64,000 nt of DNA from Clostridiales bacterium. GTDB lineage: Bacteria; Bacillota; Clostridia; Christensenellales; CAG-917. The position numbers and the translations under genes are program-made. The notes below the pieces were generated by a model. It saw only the letters and a list, made by a program, of their open reading frames with translations, was not told the DNA's origin and made no database searches. The DNA lies in the NCBI GenBank assembly GCA_022009995.1, contig CP091734.1, positions 1,089,200 to 1,153,199 of the forward strand, written 5' to 3'. This document shows, in pieces, positions 11,993 through 62,258 of this stretch (position 1 is the stretch's first letter; every line of letters starts with the position of its first letter).

Positions 11993-13401
11993 TTATTTGT
12001 TCATTATTTCCAGGCATTGCGCGAAGAACTGCGTTGCCTTTTCCATTGCGTCGATGCTGACGCGTTCGTTGATGGCGTGGATACGTTTCTGGTCGTCCAG
12101 CGTCATCAAAAACGGGGTGAAACGATAAATATTGTCGCACACGTCGCCGTAATAGCGGCTGTCGCTGTTTGCGATGAACATATAAGGCGCGGTGACCATT
12201 GTCGGGAAAATCTGTTTGATTGCGACGTTCAGGTCGTGCCACGGTTTGACGTCGATGGGTGAAACCGCCGTTGCTTCCGTACCTTTGCCGTGTCTTTCGA
12301 CCTTGACGTCTTTGCCCAGAAGTTTTTGGGTATAGGCGATGACTTCGTCGCTTGAAACGCCGGTGATGATACGGGTATTGATATTCGCCGTGACCTTGGG
12401 CGGAATGACGTTTTCGGCGTCGCTGCCGTGGAGCATCGTCTGCGCGAAGGTCGTGGAGATGAGTGAATTCGTCAAAGGAATCTTCTTGAAAACGAATTTA
12501 AGAAGCGGGCTTAAAATATCGCGGTTTACAAGGACCATTCTGATGGGAAACTTCATATGCGGCGCAAGCAACTTAAAAGTTTGTTTGGTTGCGGGCGTCC
12601 ATTTGCTGGGCATGGGGTGTTTGTCGAGTTTAATCAACGCTTTGCCAAGGAGTGCCGCCGCGGAAGGTTTTGACGGATTTGACGCGTGTCCGCCCGACTT
12701 TCGACGGTGAGCGTCATATTAAGGTTGCCTTTTTCGCACGTTGCGATAAGACCGAAGAGTTTATCGACGCCGATCATATTGCCGTCGATAATGGTGCCGC
12801 CTTCGTCGATAATGTATTCAAACTTAATGTTTTGTTGTTTGAACCACGCGCAGATATGCGCAGCGCCTTCTTCCGTCCAGGCTTCTTCGTCGTGACCGAA
12901 GCAAAAATAAACGTCGCGTTCGGGCTGCCAACCTTCGGACAAAAGTTTTTCGGTGGCTTCAAGGATTGAAATCATCGTGCCTTTCATATCCTGCGTGCCG
13001 CGTCCCCAGATGAAACCGCCGTCGATAGTGCCGCCGAACGGCTCGTAATCCCAGCCTTCTTTCGGAGCGGGGACGACGTCCTGATGTGCAAGGAATGCGC
13101 CGGGGGCAAGCGTCGGATTTTTACCTTTGAAGCGATAAACCAGACTGTAATTGTTGATGACGGTTTTTTCCGCCGTTTTATGGATCAGAGGATAGGTCTT
13201 TTCAAGCCAGGCGTGATAGTCGTGGAAAGGTTTGTCCTGACCTTCAAACTCGCCGACCATCGAAACCGTGGGGATTTGCACCGCCTCGGACAAGTGTTTT
13301 GCGATAAGGTCTTTGTCGAAATCTCTTGCTTTGAACTCGCCCGCGTCGATTTCTTGCGGTTTGCACAGCAAAGTGCGGATAATCATCGTGGTTAATAACA
13401 T
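11993..13401 (-). CDS. M20-family metallopeptidase (carboxypeptidase/dipeptidase-like); frameshift ~12694 in a G/C run
   Basis: AHQDVVP, GRGTQDMKG and GHDEE motifs. RBS AAGGAG precedes ATG 13401. ORFs 12634-13443 and 11993-12637 join as ..LTVESRGGHASNPSKPSAAALLGKALIKLDKH.. if one G is added. Confidence 0.85.
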
Positions 13402-13582
13402 AACGTAACTCCTTCGATTATTGTTATAAACATTGTAATACATAGTGTATGAATTTGCAACTTTTGTAAAAATAAATATTGCGAAACGCGCGGATTTAGT
13501 GTATCATATAATTATAGAATAAAATGGGGTAGAATGGTTTTTGCCGCATTGAAAACAAGAATTTATTATGGAGGCATATACA

Positions 13583-15728: not shown

Positions 15729-15756
15729 TTGACAATCAAAAAGTATCGTGTATAAT
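15729..15756 (+). promoter_or_regulatory. Sigma-A-type promoter of the T-box leader
   Basis: TTGACA (15729-15734), 16 nt spacer, TATAAT (15751-15756). Confidence 0.7.
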
Positions 15757-15769
15757 TATTTTCAACAAC

Positions 15770-16015
15770 ATATAAAGGCGTTTATGAGGACGTGACAAAG
15801 TTTTGGCAGCACAGAGAGCCGTCGGTCGGTGTAAGACGGTATGCGGATTTTGTCTTATCACCTTCCAGTCGCCCGACAGAACGGAAACTATTAAGTCGGG
15901 ACGGGCGCTCCCGTTACAGAGCAACGCATTGATTGATGCGTAAGTGGCTGTTAAAGCAATTTGAGTGGTACCGCGGATTAATTCTCCGTCTCAAAACGAG
16001 ACGGGGATTTATTTT
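15770..16015 (+). promoter_or_regulatory. T-box riboswitch leader, probable Ile (AUC) specifier
   Basis: AGAGAG bulge at 15813-15818. Distal loop GGUCGGUGUAA. T-box motif AATTTGAGTGGTACCGCGG at 15958-15976. Terminator CTCCGTCTC/GAGACGGGG plus T-run at 15984-16015. Specifier loop 3' side UUAUCA puts AUC (15857-15859) before the conserved A. Confidence 0.8.
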
Positions 16016-16029
16016 ATAAGGATAAAGAT

Positions 16030-17685
16030 ATGCAACTTTACGAAAAATACGTTACCGAAACCGTTGACGAAAAAACGGGCAGACTGACAAAAATCGATTT
16101 TCATATTCCCGACGACTTCAATTTCGGGTTTGACGTGGTGGATTTCTGGGGCAAAAACACCCCCGATAAAACCGCGCTTTTGTGGGTTGGCGAACATCAC
16201 GAAGAAAAAACGTTCACTTTTTCGGATATGATGCGTCTTACAAACAAAACGGCAAATTATTTCAGGTCGCTGGGCATTAAAAAAGGCGACAGGGTAATGC
16301 TTATTCTGCGCCGTCATTATCAATTCTGGTTTTCAATCGTTGCGCTGCACAAAATCGGCGCGATCGTCATTCCCGCAACGGATCAACTTATGAAAAAGGA
16401 CCTTGTATACAGGTTCAATCTTGCGGGCGTGAGCGCGGTTGTCATCAGTTCCACAGGGAGTATCGTCGACGAGGCGGAAAAAGCCTTTGAACAATGCGAC
16501 GTCAAAACGAAAATACTTGTCGGGGCAAGCCGTGACGGCTGGCACGATTTCGACACGGAATTTCAGGCGTTTTCGGACGAGTTCAAGCGTGGCGAAGGCG
16601 TTGACGCAACTTATAAAAACGACGCCGCTCTTATGTTCTTTACGTCGGGCACGTCGGGTTATCCGAAACTTGTCATGCACGACCACGCATACGCAATCGG
16701 ACACTTTATCACTGCCAAATGGTGGCATAATATCGACGGAAACGGCGTTCACCTGACGATTGCGGACACCGGCTGGGGCAAAGCGGTCTGGGGCAAACTG
16801 TATGGACAATGGCTGATGGGCAACTGTGTTTTCGTTTACGATTTCACCCGTTTCAATGCCGACGATATGCTGTCCGTCATCGAAAAGCACAAAATCACGA
16901 CGTTTTGCGCGCCGCCCACGATTTTCAGGTTCCTTATCAAAGAAGACTTGTCAAAGTACGACATTTCCAGCATAAAATACGCGACGATCGCCGGCGAAGC
17001 GCTGAATCCCGAGGTATATAAACAATTTTTGAGCCTTACGGGCATCAAACTTATGGAAGGCTTCGGACAGACCGAAACGACGCTGACGCTTGCAAACCTT
17101 CTTCATATGAACCCGAAACCCGGCAGCATGGGCATGCCGAGCCCTCAGTATAAAATCAAACTGATTACCGCCGACGGCAGACTTGCCGCAAACGGCGAAG
17201 AAGGCGAAATCTGCGTCGATATTTCGGAAGGCGCGCCCGTCGGACTTTTCCGCGGATATTACAACAACGAAGAAGCGACAAAAGCGGTAATGCACGATGG
17301 ACTTTATCACACGGGTGACACGGCGTGGCGCGACGAAGACGGCTATTATTGGTTTGTCGGGCGCACCGACGACATCATCAAATCGTCGGGCTATCGCATC
17401 GGACCGTTTGAAATCGAAAGCGTGCTTATGGAACACCCTGCCGTTCTGGAATGCGCGATAACGGGCGCACCCGATCCCGTGCGCGGACAAGTTGTCAAGG
17501 CAACGATTGTCCTTGCGAAAGGTTATACCCCGTCGGAAGAACTGAAAAAGGACATCCAGCAATACGTGAAAAGACTTACCGCACCGTACAAATACCCGCG
17601 CATCGTGGAATTCGTGACGGAACTTCCAAAGACGATTTCCGGCAAAATCAGGCACGCCGAAATAAGGAAACAGGATAATCAATAA
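16030..17685 (+). CDS. AMP-forming acyl-CoA synthetase (medium/short-chain, ACSM/AcsA-like)
   Basis: 551 aa intact ORF. Adenylate-forming motifs FFTSGTSGYPK, YHTGD, GRTDDIIKSSGYRIG and PKTISGKIRH. Confidence 0.9.
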   Translation: MQLYEKYVTETVDEKTGRLTKIDFHIPDDFNFGFDVVDFWGKNTPDKTALLWVGEHHEEKTFTFSDMMRLTNKTANYFRSLGIKKGDRVMLILRRHYQFWFSIVALHKIGAIVIPATDQLMKKDLVYRFNLAGVSAVVISSTGSIVDEAEKAFEQCDVKTKILVGASRDGWHDFDTEFQAFSDEFKRGEGVDATYKNDAALMFFTSGTSGYPKLVMHDHAYAIGHFITAKWWHNIDGNGVHLTIADTGWGKAVWGKLYGQWLMGNCVFVYDFTRFNADDMLSVIEKHKITTFCAPPTIFRFLIKEDLSKYDISSIKYATIAGEALNPEVYKQFLSLTGIKLMEGFGQTETTLTLANLLHMNPKPGSMGMPSPQYKIKLITADGRLAANGEEGEICVDISEGAPVGLFRGYYNNEEATKAVMHDGLYHTGDTAWRDEDGYYWFVGRTDDIIKSSGYRIGPFEIESVLMEHPAVLECAITGAPDPVRGQVVKATIVLAKGYTPSEELKKDIQQYVKRLTAPYKYPRIVEFVTELPKTISGKIRHAEIRKQDNQ

Positions 17686-17700
17686 AAGAAAAAATATGAC

Positions 17701-17727
17701 AAAATCCACGGTTTAACCGTGGATTTT
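17701..17727. terminator. Bidirectional terminator between convergent genes
   Basis: AAAATCCACGG / CCGTGGATTTT. Confidence 0.8.
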
Positions 17728-19433: not shown

Positions 19434-19647
19434 AAAAAAAAGACCGCCGCGACGAGCGACGGTTTTATCGCCAAGTTGCCGACTGTAACTTTTTGCGCAA
19501 CCTATGCGCATAGGTGGGCAAACTATCCGAAACCGCTGTTTTCCTTCATGGTCCGTGAGGACAAGGCGTAACATAAGAGACGGAAATCGTAATCCCTGAA
19601 AGTTGTGGTTGGAAAATAAGTTACATATCGTACAACCCAGGTACATC
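19434..19647 (-). ncRNA. Candidate structured sRNA with its own promoter and terminator, 6S-RNA-like architecture; identity unresolved
   Basis: Promoter at 19651-19678. By-eye long irregular hairpin: 5'/3' closing pairs CUGGGUUG/CAACUUGG, GUAACUU/AAGUUAC and CAACC/GGUUG, a large internal bubble, and apical stem CCUU-GUCC-UCAC-GGAC-AAGG. Terminator ACCGTCGC/GCGGCGGT plus T8 at 19434-19463. Confidence 0.4.
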
Positions 19648-55751: not shown

Positions 55752-55771
55752 ATCAAAAAAAATTTTTCAGG

Positions 55772-55798
55772 GGCGAAGGCAAAGGCTTTCGCCTTTTT
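55772..55798 (+). terminator. Rho-independent terminator
   Basis: GGCGAA...TTCGCC stem followed by TTTTT. Confidence 0.65.
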
Positions 55799-55810
55799 CG
55801 CGCGCTTTTC

Positions 55811-55839
55811 TTGACAATTCATAATATATTTTCTATAAT
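55811..55839 (+). promoter_or_regulatory. Consensus sigma-A promoter of ileS (short leader, no T-box)
   Basis: TTGACA (55811-55816), 17 nt spacer, TATAAT (55834-55839). Only ~27 nt of leader before ATG 55873. Confidence 0.75.
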
Positions 55840-55872
55840 GTCTTGAAATATATAAATTATTGAGGTTTTTCA

Positions 55873-58800
55873 ATGTACAAAAAAGTTGACAACGGTCTTG
55901 ATTTTGTGGCGCGCGAAAAGGAAGTTCTGGACTTCTGGAAGGAAAACCACATCTTTGAAAAAAGCGTCGAAAAAAACGTCGGCAATCCCGAGTTTTCGTT
56001 TTTCGACGGTCCGCCTACGGCAAACGGACGTCCCCACATCGGGCATATTCTCACCCGCGTTATGAAGGATATTATTCCCCGCTATAAGACGATGAAAGGT
56101 TATCACGTTTAAGGAAAGCGGGCTGGGATACTCACGGTCTTCCCGTCGAACTCGAAGTGGAAAAACAACTGCACATCGACGGCAAACAGGAAATCGAAAA
56201 GTACGGTATCGAGCCGTTCATCAAGCAGTGCAAAGAAAGCGTATGGAAATATAAACACGAATGGGAAGTCATGTCCGACCGCGTCGGTTACTGGGCGGAT
56301 ATGGAAAACCCCTACGTCACCTACGACGACAATTATATCGAGTCGGTGTGGTGGAGCCTGAAAGAAATCGACAAAAAAGGACTTTTATACAAAGGCTATA
56401 AAATCGTTCCTTACTGCCCGCGTTGCGGCACGGCTTTGTCAAGCCACGAGGTCGCGCAGGGATACAAGGACGTCAAAGAACGTTCTGTTTTCGTAAGGTT
56501 CAGGCTCGTTGACGAAGAAAACACGAGTTTCCTTGCCTGGACGACCACCCCGTGGACGCTCCCCAGCAACGTCGCGCTTTGTATGAACGCGAAAGAAGAC
56601 TACGCCAAATCAAGGTCGGCGACGAATACTTCATTATGGCAAAGGCTCTTATCCCGTCCCTTTTCAAGGAGGACGAATACGAACTTGTCAGCGTGAAAAA
56701 GGGCAAGGATTACGAATATACGAAATATAAACCCCTTTTCGATTACGTCAAAGACACGTCGAAGGGCTGGTTTGTTACGAACGCCGATTACGTCACTCTT
56801 ACCGACGGTACCGGCGTCGTACACATCGCGCCCGCATTCGGCGAAGACGACGCGCAGGTCGGCAGACGTTACGACTTGCCTTTTGTGAAATTCGTGGACG
56901 ACCGCGGCAGACTCACCGACGACGTTTACGACTTCAAAGGTCTTTTCGTGAAAGACGCCGATCGTCCCATTATCATGAAACTGAACGAAACGGGATTGCT
57001 GTTCAAGGATATGCTTTACGAACACAGTTACCCGTTCTGCTGGCGTTGCGACACCCCGCTTATTTATTACGCACGCGAAAGCTGGTTCATTAAGATGACG
57101 GCAGTTCGCGACGAACTTATGAAACGCAATCTGTCGGTCAACTGGATGCCGCCGACAATCGCGACGGGACGTATGGGCAACTTCATCGAAAACGTCATCG
57201 ACTGGGGCATCAGCCGCGAACGTTACTGGGGCACGCCGCTTCCCATCTGGATTTGCGACAAGTGCGGACATAAACACGTCGTCGGCAGCCGCGAAGAACT
57301 TTGCAAACTCGGCGGGCTTGAAAAAGCACCCGAACTTCATAAACCTTATATCGACGAGGTCACGTTCACGTGTCCCGAATGCGGCGGCGTAATGCACCGC
57401 GTTCCCGAAGTGCTGGATTGCTGGTACGACAGCGGCAGCATGCCTTTCGCGCAGTGGCACTATCCGTTTGAAAACAAGGAAATTTTCGACGAAGTGTACC
57501 CCGCCGACTTTATTTCGGAAGCAATCGACCAGACTCGCGGTTGGTTCTATACATTGCTTGCGATTTCGACGCTTCTGTTCGACAAGGCAAGTTTCAAAAA
57601 CTGCATAGTTTTAGGACACGTCAACGACAAAGACGGCATCAAAATGAGCAAGCATAAGGGCAACGTCGTCGATCCGTTCAGTGTGCTCGACAAGCAAGGT
57701 GCGGACGCCGTGAGATGGCATTTCTATACGTCAAGCGCACCCTGGCTTCCTTCGAGGTTCTATCCCGAAGCCGTCAGTGAGTCGCAGCGTAAATTCATGG
57801 GCACGCTCTGGAACACCTATGCGTTCTTTGTACTTTACGCCGATATCGACAAGTTCGATCCGACGAAATACAACCTTAAAGATTGCAAACTGTCGGTCAT
57901 GGACAGATGGGTGCTTTCGGGGCTCAACAGCCTTATCAAATATGTGGACGACTGTCTGAACGAATATAAGATTTTTGAAAGCGCAAGGAAGATTCAGGAC
58001 TTCGTGGACGAACTTTCCAACTGGTACGTCCGTCGCGGTCGAGAAAGATACTGGGGAAGCGAAATGTCCGACGACAAAATCGCCGCGTATATGACGCTTT
58101 ACACCGTCCTTACCGAACTGTCGAAACTCATCGCGCCGTACACCCCGTTTATGGCGGAAAGCATTTATCAGAACCTTGTCAGGTCGTTTGACAAAAACGC
58201 GCCCGAAAGCGTGCATCTGACCTCGTTCCCCGTGGCGGACGAAAGTTTCATCGACACCGCGCTCGAAGACGGCATGGAAGAAGTTATCCGCGTTGTCGTT
58301 TTGGGACGCGCCGCAAGAAATCAGGCGAACATCAAAAACCGCCAGCCCTTGCAGAAACTGTATGTGACCGGCGTTGAATTCGACGACGAACTGAAAGCCC
58401 TCGTTTCAGACGAAATTAACGTGAAAGAAGTGCTTAACGCGTCGGGCGAACAGGACTTCGTAACGTACGAAATCAAGCCGCAACTCAAAACGATCGGTCC
58501 GAAATACGGAAAACTTTTGGGCAAAATCAAGGAGCATCTTGCGAATGCCGACGGAAAAGCAATCGTGAACGCAGTCGCAACCGGCACGTATAAGGTCGAT
58601 ATCGACGGCACGGAAGTCGAGTTCTCAAAGGACGATATTCTCGTGTCCGTGAAAAACAAGGAAGGTTTCAGCAGCGAAGTCGACGGCGATATTTCGGTAA
58701 TCCTCGACACCGCGCTCACCGCCGAACTTATCGAAGAAGGCGCAATGCGTGAAATCGTCTCCAAAATCCAGACGATGAGAAAGGAAGCGGGCTTTGAAGT

Positions 58801-58981
58801 TACCGACCATATCACGCTCGGGTTCAAAACGGATTCCGCGCTCCTTAAAAAGATTATGAACGACAACACGACGGTCAGAAACGCCGTCCTTGCCGACGAA
58901 GTCAGAAACGATATCGACGGCTACACGAAAGAATGGGACATCGGCGACGATAAAATCACGCTGTCCGTCAAAAAGAAATAA
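55873..58981 (+). CDS. ileS: Isoleucine--tRNA ligase (~1036 aa, probably type 2); two apparent frameshifts (~56105 T-run, ~56608 A-run)
   Basis: HIGH motif [17 protein letters not shown] motif [12 protein letters not shown], editing and anticodon-binding regions. Three ORF fragments join when one base is added to each run. Confidence 0.95.
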
Positions 58982-60600: not shown

Positions 60601-62258
60601 ATGGAATTTATCGAAAACACTTTGGGCGGCGTCCTGGACGACCTCTCAAAACACAATCCGAACGGCTGGGCGGTAAGATATACCGACAGAAATTACTTCC
60701 GCACCTGGAAAGAACTTAACGACGAGGCGGATCTCATCGCGCGCGGCATGATGTCTTTGGGCGTCAAAAAGGGCGATCACGTCGCAATCTGGGCAACCAA
60801 CACTCCCGAATGGATTCTGACGTTGTTCGCGGCGGCGAAAATCGGTGCGGTGCTTGTAACCGTCAATACCAATTTCAAAATTTTTGAGTTGGAATACCTT
60901 TTGAGGCAGTCGGACACGAAACTTCTCGTGATGATCGGCGGATTCAAAAACAACGACTACGTCGCAACCGTGAACGAGCTTCTGCCCGAACTGAAAACGA
61001 CGTCCGGCGAAATCGAGTCGGAGCATCTGCCGTTTTTGAAACGCGTCGTTTTTGCAGGGAAAGAAACGCCCGAAGGTATGCTCAATTTTGAGGATTTGAA
61101 AATTCTTGGCGGCGATTTCCCCGTCGAAATTTACGAGGAAAACAAAAAAACTCTGAACACACACGACGTCGTGAATATGCAATATACCTCGGGCACGACA
61201 GGCTTTCCGAAGGGCGTAATGCTCACGCACTACAATATCCTGAACAACGGCAAAACCATCGGCGACGGTATGAAATTTACAAAAAACGACAAACTTTGCA
61301 TCACCGTTCCGTTTTTCCACTGCTTCGGACTTGTGCTTGCGATGATGGCGTGCATTACTCACGGCACGACGATGGTGCCCGTCGAAAGATACAGCCCCGT
61401 CCCCGTTATGAACGCAATCAGCGTCGAAAAATGCACGGCGGTGCACGGCGTACCCACGATGTTCATCGCAATGCTGGAACACGCGCAGTTCAATAACTTT
61501 GATTTTTCAAGCCTCAGAACGGGCATTATGGCAGGCTCGCCTTGTCCCATCGAAGTGATGAAAAAAGTCATCGACAAAATGAATATGCGCGAAATCGTCA
61601 TTGTTTTCGGACAGACCGAAGCGTCGCCCGGCTGCACGATGACGACGACTTCCGACAGCATCGACAAACGAGTAAACACGGTAGGGCGTGCGTTCCCGGG
61701 CGTCGAGTGCAAAATCATCGATCCGGAAAGTGGCGAAGAACTTCCGATAAACACCCCCGGCGAATTTTGTGCAAGGGGATACAATATAATGAAAGGGTAT
61801 TACAAAATGCCCGAAGCGACCGCGCAAGCCATCGACAAGGACGGCTGGTTGCATACCGGCGATTTGTGCACCGTGGACGAAGACGGATATTATAAGGTCG
61901 TCGGACGTATCAAAGATATGATTATCCGCGGCGGTGAAAATATTTATCCGAAAGAAATCGAGGAGTGCTTGTATACGTGTGACAAGGTTTCCGACGTGCA
62001 GGTCATCGGCGTGCCTTCCGAGGCGTACGGCGAAGAAGTCATGGCGTGCGTCATTCTGAAAGAGGGCGAAGAAATGACCGAAGAAGAAGTCAGGAATTCG
62101 TCGGCGCAAGAATGGCAAAACACAAGGTGCCGAGATACGTCAGGTTCGTGGACTCGTTCCCGACGAACGCGGCAGGCAAAATACAAAAATTCAAGATGCG
62201 TGAAGAAGCGATCGAGATTCTGAAACTGCAAACCGCCGCTTCAATCGAAACCGCATAA
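60601..62258 (+). CDS. AMP-dependent long/medium-chain fatty acid--CoA ligase (FadD-like); frameshift ~62098 in a T-run
   Basis: YTSGTTGFPKGVMLTH, ..GQTEASP.., ..LHTGD.., ..GRIKDMIIRGGENIYP.. The C-terminal ..KVPRYVRFVDSFPTNAAGKIQKF is in the frame of ORF 62046-62258. Confidence 0.85.

Follow-up and report, generated by a model that had tools for sequence, protein, structure and literature searches.

The 64-kb window analysed here (the whole stretch of 64,000 nucleotides, from contig CP091734.1 of the Clostridiales bacterium assembly GCA_022009995.1) carries a T-box leader RNA directly 5' of a gene encoding an acyl-CoA synthetase (ACS), and the features of this unit are collected in Table 1. 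Its promoter matched the consensus at 12/12 bases and was the top site of the region scanned, and the leader aligned to the complete Rfam T-box model RF00230 (model positions 1-219 of 219) at 99.4 bits against a gathering threshold of 93 (E = 1.1e-20), with no second T-box found in the window by a permissive Rfam pass (E <= 0.05). The AG bulge and the distal loop together form the platform for the tRNA elbow, and 6/6 distal-stem pairs covary among homologous leaders. Energetically, the antiterminator folded in isolation reached -8.5 kcal/mol and is exceeded in stability by the terminator fold (-19.7 kcal/mol), and the 3' strand of the former overlaps the 5' arm of the latter, with bases 15984-15993 in common; a weaker antiterminator over a stronger overlapping terminator is the usual default-off layout. 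The terminator sits about 14 nt ahead of the ATG at 16030, a gap too short for a further promoter, and beyond the gene a palindromic hairpin, which is probably a bidirectional terminator, divides ACS from a convergent TetR gene, so that the unit is monocistronic and, therefore, every ACS transcript has to traverse the leader. For the cognate tRNA, the UGGU of the leader predicts an A73 discriminator, which is usual in bacterial tRNA-Ile and tRNA-Val. Every element of the complete T-box architecture that a first-pass annotation of this DNA had described upstream of the synthetase was thus found in place, and the leader passed the covariance-model check.

Table 1. Coordinates, in the window, of the features that make up the T-box-ACS transcription unit.
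Feature	Position	Strand	Details	Basis
Sigma-70-type promoter	15729-15756	+	TTGACA 15729-15734, 16-nt spacer, TATAAT 15751-15756	
T-box leader RNA	15772-15996	+	Stem I, Stem II, IIA/B, Stem III, antiterminator	Rfam RF00230
Stem I	15786-15864	+	-19.2 kcal/mol	Constrained fold
AG bulge	15813-15818	+	AGAGAG	Read from sequence
Distal hairpin loop	15824-15834	+	GGUGUAA; GGUG at 15828-15831	Read from sequence
Specifier codon	15857-15859	+	AUC (isoleucine), followed by A15860	Triplet 5' of the purine that adjoins the basal helix
T-box sequence	15958-15976	+	AAUUUGAGUGGUACCGCGG; UGGU at 15966-15969	
Antiterminator	15962-15993	+	Helices UGAG/CUCA and GCGGA/UCCGU around the T-box bulge UGGUACC	Rfam alignment
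Intrinsic terminator	15983-16017	+	10-bp stem 15983-16007, then UUUAUUUUAU (U tract)	Terminator scan
Ribosome-binding site	16018-16022	+	AAGGA, 7 nt 5' of the ATG	Read from sequence
MacsMa/MbcS-type short branched-chain acyl-CoA synthetase (ANL superfamily)	16030-17685	+	551 aa	Pfam, PDB, NCBIfam
Palindromic hairpin between A and T runs	17701-17727	.	Separates the convergent ACS and TetR genes	Terminator scan, ORF map

Relatives were gathered by scanning one genome per species, which gave 80 loci with an ACS at 55-64% identity (Clostridia, Bacteroidota, Methanolobus and others), and closer relatives (66-88% identity) and the cultured Neobittarella massiliensis were added by exact-protein look-ups. 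A T-box was present on 54 homologous genes, from Christensenellaceae-like and Oscillospirales genomes; 53 of their leaders were aligned, with the Stem I helices scored in 52, and the N. massiliensis leader (locus L091) completes the 54. Basal and distal helices were scored explicitly, and the middle Stem I helix was handled by per-sequence constrained folds. Structurally, the window Stem I consists of a basal helix (GAGG 15786-15789 with CCUU 15861-15864) and a middle helix (GACAAAGU 15794-15801 with AUUUUGUC 15847-15854), which leave specifier loop sides of ACGU (5') and UUAUCA (3', 15855-15860); in many relatives these sides are AC and CAUCA, and the 3' side was 4-7 nt long in 44 of the 52 constrained folds. 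The basal helix was 100% paired in the 52 leaders, with all 4 of its pairs changed on both sides, and in basal and distal helices taken together 98.6% of cells were paired and 11 of 12 pairs had double-sided changes, a level of pairing reached by 0/500 shuffles and compared with 28-54% in slid registers. Because the register of the basal helix is set by covariation, the frame is fixed at AUC.

The codon tally points the same way. The specifier was AUC in 31/54 leaders and GUA (valine) in 23/54 (30 and 23 among the aligned leaders, in one column block), with AUC invariant across the 31 leaders of this gene clade. The base 5' of AUC varies among U, A and C, which leaves the -1 frame (UAU, AAU, CAU) without conservation, and in the paralogue leaders GUA is followed by G or A, which makes the +1 frame a stop codon (UAG or UAA). 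Independently, the Rfam model placed both codons, AUC and GUA, in the columns of its consensus specifier (L010, L091), and in the alignment of the window sequence itself there is a gap at the first codon column because the 3' side of its loop is only 6 nt. Over the 52 leaders, the canonical Stem I fold had a median penalty of zero in per-sequence constrained folds, and in the close relatives L081, L084, L087 and L089 the unconstrained minimum free energy (MFE) structure is the canonical Stem I fold. The Stem I hand fold and AUC specifier proposed at first pass thus agree with the constrained fold, with covariation and with the Rfam columns in relatives, and we regard the predicted leader RNA, its isoleucine specifier and its regulatory logic as secure. 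Two other approaches were set aside: RNAalifold on a MAFFT alignment of Stem I recovered the distal hairpin alone because the variable middle helix was misaligned, and regex calling of specifiers chose later GUAG contexts and miscalled about one third of the leaders, so that alignment columns and Rfam alignments were used instead.

Functionally, the downstream gene is an intact open reading frame (ORF) covered over its full length by PF00501 (AMP-binding, 219.8 bits) and PF13193 (AMP-binding_C, 83.2 bits). Its closest solved relative is 3ETC, the MacsMa enzyme of Methanosarcina acetivorans, with 709 bits over residues 23-550 (next match 378). MacsMa adenylates C3-C8 acids, propionate included, favours 2-methylbutyrate and releases the acyl-CoA with 2-methylbutyrate only, and its pocket is marked by a glycine in place of the Acs tryptophan and by an alternative tryptophan, Trp259 (PMC10455477). 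The window ACS likewise carries both hallmarks, as G346 (in GFGQTET) and W232 (in AKWWHN, the counterpart of Trp259), and both are invariant in 106 homologues. Among NCBIfam models, the top match was MbcS of Staphylococcus aureus (NF047394, 480.9 bits), an enzyme with a Km of 5-10 uM for 2-methylbutyrate and isobutyrate (PMC13584741), and the second was the acetate-CoA ligase PRK04319 (385 bits). The predicted enzyme class is well supported by these matches, and homology to 3ETC together with the isoleucine specifier suggests that the window ACS most likely activates 2-methylbutyrate; the kinship with MacsMa and MbcS backs the earlier guess that this might be a 2-methylbutyrate (branched short-chain acid) CoA ligase. 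The window holds a second AMP-binding/ANL enzyme (60601-62223, +; 540 aa) 3' of ileS, which is about 25% identical to the T-box ACS and has no T-box.

Within the window clade, the leader lay directly 5' of ACS in 5/5 syntenic relatives whose upstream region could be read (L081, L084, L087, L088 and L089; 67-88% identity), all with AUC-A and with compensatory changes in the middle Stem I helix, so that the orthologue survey called for at first pass found both leader and specifier kept; L090, whose upstream is masked by Ns, lies outside this count. The common gene order in this clade is an M20 peptidase and/or phosphoenolpyruvate carboxykinase, then ACS, TetR and MMPL, and its proteins are publicly annotated merely as "AMP-binding protein" from Christensenellaceae/Eubacteriales metagenome-assembled genomes (MAGs). 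The leader was also found in L001-L003 (two Christensenellaceae MAGs are among the leader carriers), in about 30 Oscillospirales loci and in N. massiliensis. In the Oscillospirales MAGs, labelled Ruminococcus, Acutalibacteraceae or Oscillospiraceae, the ACS carries an N-terminal fusion of a helix-turn-helix (HTH) and a cupin domain and is usually a tandem duplicate with a T-box for each copy. In N. massiliensis (L091 9069-11677, GCA_014269355.1), a T-box of 87.4 bits with an AUC specifier is followed by an HTH-cupin gene and then by ACS. No T-box was found at ACS in Bacteroidota, archaea or other Clostridia, where a looser motif search likewise gave nothing credible, and at these loci an HTH-cupin gene or domain precedes ACS.

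The HTH-cupin module has a history of its own. It is of the XRE type and, in Bacteroidota, Methanolobus, Neobittarella and other Clostridia, either stands as a separate gene ahead of ACS or forms the N-terminal part of the ACS protein (among L003-L080, e.g., L010 5302-5976, and in L091 9399-9998), and it has been lost in the window clade, L001 and L002; in the fused forms, a transcription-factor-like domain is attached to the enzyme itself under a riboswitch. One Ruminococcus MAG in the T-box clade (L031 3704-8217) has both HTH-cupin::ACS paralogues back to back with a 21-nt gap and neither with a T-box, apparently a secondary loss of both leaders.

Evolutionarily, the GUA-leader genes form a single clade inside the fused clade with AUC leaders; the sister of this fused clade is the window clade, in which every leader reads AUC. 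The residues that discriminate AUC-type from GUA-type enzymes most clearly are at positions 107, 250, 253, 352 and 355, of which 250/253 adjoin the GWGK motif and 352/355 adjoin the QTET motif, and the window ACS has the AUC-type residue at 4/5 of them. In the tandem leaders of 16 loci, Stem I identity was 0.65-0.68 between loci for the same specifier versus 0.56 within a locus, and over the span from Stem II through the T-box, identity was 0.75 between the Ile and the Val copy at a single locus and 0.70-0.76 for the same type between loci. These identities fit a joint duplication of gene and leader in which Stem I specialised; gene conversion among the tandem copies of the leader, which we also considered, finds weak support in the 3'-part values (0.75 within a locus vs 0.70-0.76 between loci).

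Branched short-chain acids are turned into branched-chain amino acids by reductive carboxylation in rumen bacteria and methanogens, as known from classical labelling work, and many of the fibre-degrading anaerobes of rumen and gut use branched-chain volatile fatty acids (VFAs) as growth factors. The same conversion of branched short-chain acids to amino acids is mentioned in PMC7356843. In the Oscillospirales relatives, all three enzymes of such a route (ligase, VorB-type 2-oxoacid:ferredoxin oxidoreductase and the aminotransferase IlvE) stand in one gene string, ordered T-box(Ile)-ACS, T-box(Val)-ACS, [IlvE], ParA-like, VOR delta/alpha/beta/gamma, [IlvE], where VOR denotes the oxidoreductase and brackets mark an aminotransferase gene that is present only sometimes. 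In L010, gaps of a few bases separate the second ACS from a ParA/CbiA-like P-loop protein, a 79-aa 2x[4Fe-4S] delta subunit and then the oxidoreductase alpha, beta and gamma subunits, and alpha, at 528 bits, scores above the cut-off of the VorB subfamily (399 bits). Of the T-box loci, 19 have VOR genes downstream in the same orientation, and 8 have a class IV aminotransferase within the string; the one in L021 scores above the cut-offs of two IlvE equivalogs (483 > 307 and 398 > 250 bits). Clusters of ACS and VOR without a T-box occur in Methanolobus and in one deltaproteobacterial MAG; therefore, the enzyme pairing predates riboswitch control. The VOR presumably runs in the carboxylating direction, the sole one in which co-induction of ligase, VOR and IlvE at uncharged tRNA would be sensible.

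Three further observations concern these strings. The ParA/CbiA-like P-loop NTPase between the ACS genes and VOR delta (L010 10324-10986 and its equivalents in the 19 loci) had no NCBIfam match and may serve Fe-S or cofactor maturation. In L041 (822-4993), L023 and L004 (about 780-1140), a third T-box with a CUC (leucine) specifier, a canonical S-turn and 107-126 bits in Rfam lies 5' of the Ile/Val tandem; its first gene in L041 is a divergent LeuA-like protein that falls under all 2-isopropylmalate synthase cut-offs, its second (834 aa) joins a TIM barrel resembling xylose isomerase to an acyl-CoA ligase from another ANL subfamily, and the unit may be the isovalerate/Leu arm of the same system. 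Finally, L021 carries a further T-box (12436-12734, +; 101 bits) just 3' of IlvE and VOR, with a specifier that reads CUC (Leu) by hand and a target gene that runs past the locus end.

With moderate confidence, we posit that the AUC T-box of the window controls a 2-methylbutyrate-activating ACS, the entry step of anaerobic isoleucine salvage. For the window organism, we infer the link to 2-methylbutyrate and isoleucine salvage from the co-variation of paralogue and specifier and from the operons of relatives, and the salvage idea, already raised at first pass, gains strong contextual backing from the AUC/GUA paralogues beside a VorB-type oxidoreductase and IlvE in Oscillospirales. Mechanistically, transcription would begin at the consensus promoter, and the AUC specifier would pair with the anticodon of tRNA-Ile(GAU). 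With charged tRNA-Ile, the terminator would form and the transcript would stop about 14 nt before ACS; with uncharged tRNA-Ile, the free 3' end would pair with the UGGU bulge, stabilise the antiterminator and let the polymerase enter the single gene. The ACS would then turn exogenous 2-methylbutyrate into 2-methylbutyryl-CoA, a 2-oxoacid:ferredoxin oxidoreductase would reductively carboxylate this to 2-oxo-3-methylvalerate, and IlvE would transaminate the product to isoleucine. More broadly, the T-box specifiers may serve as inherent tags for a conserved and hitherto unrecognised regulon shared by Clostridia of gut and rumen (Christensenellaceae-like and Oscillospirales), in which the AUC ligase would activate 2-methylbutyrate and the GUA ligase isobutyrate, so that VOR and IlvE would form Ile and Val out of fermentation acids, with a third, unrelated ligase under CUC (Leu) in some genomes; such a regulon, which we find about as easy to doubt as to accept, would underlie, in both genes and regulation, the branched-chain VFA need long known in ruminal Ruminococcus-type bacteria.

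Several observations weigh against isoleucine salvage controlled by this leader. On the RNA side, the RF00230 score exceeds its threshold by only 6 bits, the window Stem I alone has an MFE alternative that is 4.4 kcal/mol better than the canonical fold (-23.6 vs -19.2 kcal/mol), and its specifier loop lacks the AGUA/GAA S-turn, which is common in T-boxes and not a family criterion. Neither the window nor 37 loci yielded a tRNA-Ile or tRNA-Val gene against which the UGGU-discriminator match could be read. On the enzyme side, the ACS misses the MbcS equivalog cut-off of 850 bits and is thus a relative of MbcS, not an orthologue, and its identity to the homologues with an informative gene context is 55-64%, which makes its substrate assignment a transfer by homology alone. 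On the pathway side, tblastn found no VOR, delta subunit or IlvE in the 64-kb window, and no other branched-chain amino acid (BCAA) gene was found there; the ACS of the window clade is monocistronic, beside a TetR-MMPL pair, and co-location of ACS, VOR and IlvE is thus a feature of relatives and not of the window. In N. massiliensis, no VOR was called within 10 kb on either side of the locus.

The main rival keeps the same switch and the same chemistry and lets 2-methylbutyryl-CoA prime anteiso branched-chain fatty acids, as MbcS does in S. aureus, with induction when isoleucine, the usual source of the primer, runs short. MbcS is the top NCBIfam match of the window ACS, and the S. aureus mbcS promoter is about 2-fold higher in a codY mutant, i.e., with CodY inactive, when BCAAs are perceived as low (PMC13584741); the lack of VOR and IlvE in the window and the conserved neighbours, a TetR regulator and an MMPL transporter, suit this role as well. 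Nevertheless, the T-box ACS genes of Oscillospirales run into IlvE and VOR, a co-induction that is sensible only toward the amino acid, the described T-box regulons restore charged tRNA (PMC3766115), and the MbcS equivalog cut-off is not reached, so that we hold fatty-acid priming to be unlikely, though deserving of attention.

A minor rival would have the enzyme activate propionate, with propionyl-CoA carboxylated reductively to 2-oxobutyrate and passed through IlvBCDE to isoleucine. Formation of 2-oxobutyrate from propionate is a known anaerobic route. Propionate is also among the acids that MacsMa adenylates, whereas its release of acyl-CoA is confined to 2-methylbutyrate (PMC10455477), and the glycine-for-tryptophan pocket belongs to a medium or branched-chain enzyme type. 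Moreover, the paralogue with a valine specifier points to a logic of one acid for one amino acid, and we consider the propionate route improbable. More doubtful again is a general short-chain (e.g., acetate) synthetase for carbon assimilation whose isoleucine T-box would have no pathway meaning: PRK04319 as the second NCBIfam match speaks for it, and against it stand the change of the Acs-defining tryptophan to glycine in 106/106 members, a specifier that co-varies with the paralogue over 54 genes and the VOR and IlvE neighbours in relatives. Least credible of all is a leader that has decayed or is read in another frame, e.g., UCA (Ser) or UAU (Tyr), as the non-canonical MFE fold of the window Stem I, the missing S-turn and the Rfam gap at the first codon column might suggest, since the NAU frame varies (UAU, AAU, CAU) where AUC is invariant, the +1 frame of the GUA leaders is a stop codon, terminator and antiterminator are intact and close relatives fold canonically.

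Set beside known systems, the tRNA-dependent salvage control that we favour joins familiar parts. Like the classical transcriptional T-boxes (RF00230) of ileS and the ilv/leu operons, the leader has a full Stem I with specifier, AG bulge and distal loop, Stem II, IIA/B and Stem III, the same competition of a UGGN-bulge antiterminator with a terminator and the same logic of amino-acid-specific induction. It departs from them in its small specifier loop (4 x 6 nt) without the AGUA/GAA S-turn that the Leu T-boxes of L023 and L041 do have, and in its target, an acyl-CoA synthetase, which is outside the three described target classes of aminoacyl-tRNA synthetases, biosynthesis and transport (PMC3766115). 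Unlike the classical ileS T-boxes, it also coexists with an ileS that has no T-box: the intergenic region 5' of ileS (55752-55872, about 120 nt) contains nothing beyond an upstream terminator, a TTGACA-17-TATAAT promoter and a leader of about 27 nt, and gave no Rfam match, also at E <= 0.05, so that sequence reading and Rfam agree with the first-pass statement that ileS (55873) is preceded by just a promoter and a short leader. With respect to the enzyme, VOR genes follow the MacsMa homologues in Methanolobus, whereas MacsMa itself is archaeal and has no T-box, and homologues outside the T-box clades have an HTH-cupin regulator preceding or fused. MbcS shares high-affinity activation of 2-methylbutyrate and isobutyrate and a rise in expression at perceived low BCAA, whereas its control is an indirect CodY effect without a riboswitch and its product feeds fatty-acid synthesis (PMC13584741). 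Compared with the reductive carboxylation route of rumen bacteria and methanogens, the window shows the first enzyme only.

In the literature covered, acyl-CoA synthetase is not listed as a T-box target in Wels 2008, in the RegPrecise survey or in the TBDB paper, which do not make up every T-box survey; acyl-CoA does not appear in a T-box review from 2020, and full-text searches combining T-box with acyl-CoA synthetase, ferredoxin oxidoreductase or acyl-CoA gave nothing relevant. The first-pass annotation had known of no acyl-CoA synthetase in described T-box regulons, and the surveys covered here bear this out. We likewise found no description of branched-chain VFA-activating enzymes, of their regulation or of T-box control of carboxylation-route genes. 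T-boxes and the enzyme family are each known and their coupling appears new, with single instances probably already present, unremarked, in T-box databases. If the isoleucine-salvage reading is true, an Ile/Val salvage route that is old in the rumen and gut would come under tRNA control, and the T-box regulon would widen past aminoacyl-tRNA synthetases, de novo biosynthesis and transport to the activation of salvage substrates. The riboswitch codon would then offer an independent readout that ties the enzyme family to branched-chain VFA physiology, the substrate of each paralogue (Ile/2-methylbutyrate vs Val/isobutyrate) would be predictable from sequence alone, and thousands of database entries named "AMP-binding protein" would gain a better name. 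As a cultured carrier, N. massiliensis makes the model tractable and directly testable.

Elsewhere in the window, ileS (55873-58981, +) is interrupted: its first frame ends after 79 codons, a second begins near 56110 and a third from about 56550, i.e., two frameshifts, which could be either an assembly indel error or a pseudogene. The M20 peptidase gene (11993-13443, -) is split into ORFs of 214 and 269 aa, where syntenic relatives have a single protein of 465-481 aa, and with the breaks in ileS this indicates that the assembly probably carries indel errors. Finally, a full-length, sub-threshold match to 6S RNA (RF00013; 40.2 vs 46.4 bits, E = 1.1e-4) lies at 19464-19646 (-), adjoining tRNA-Thr(CGU).

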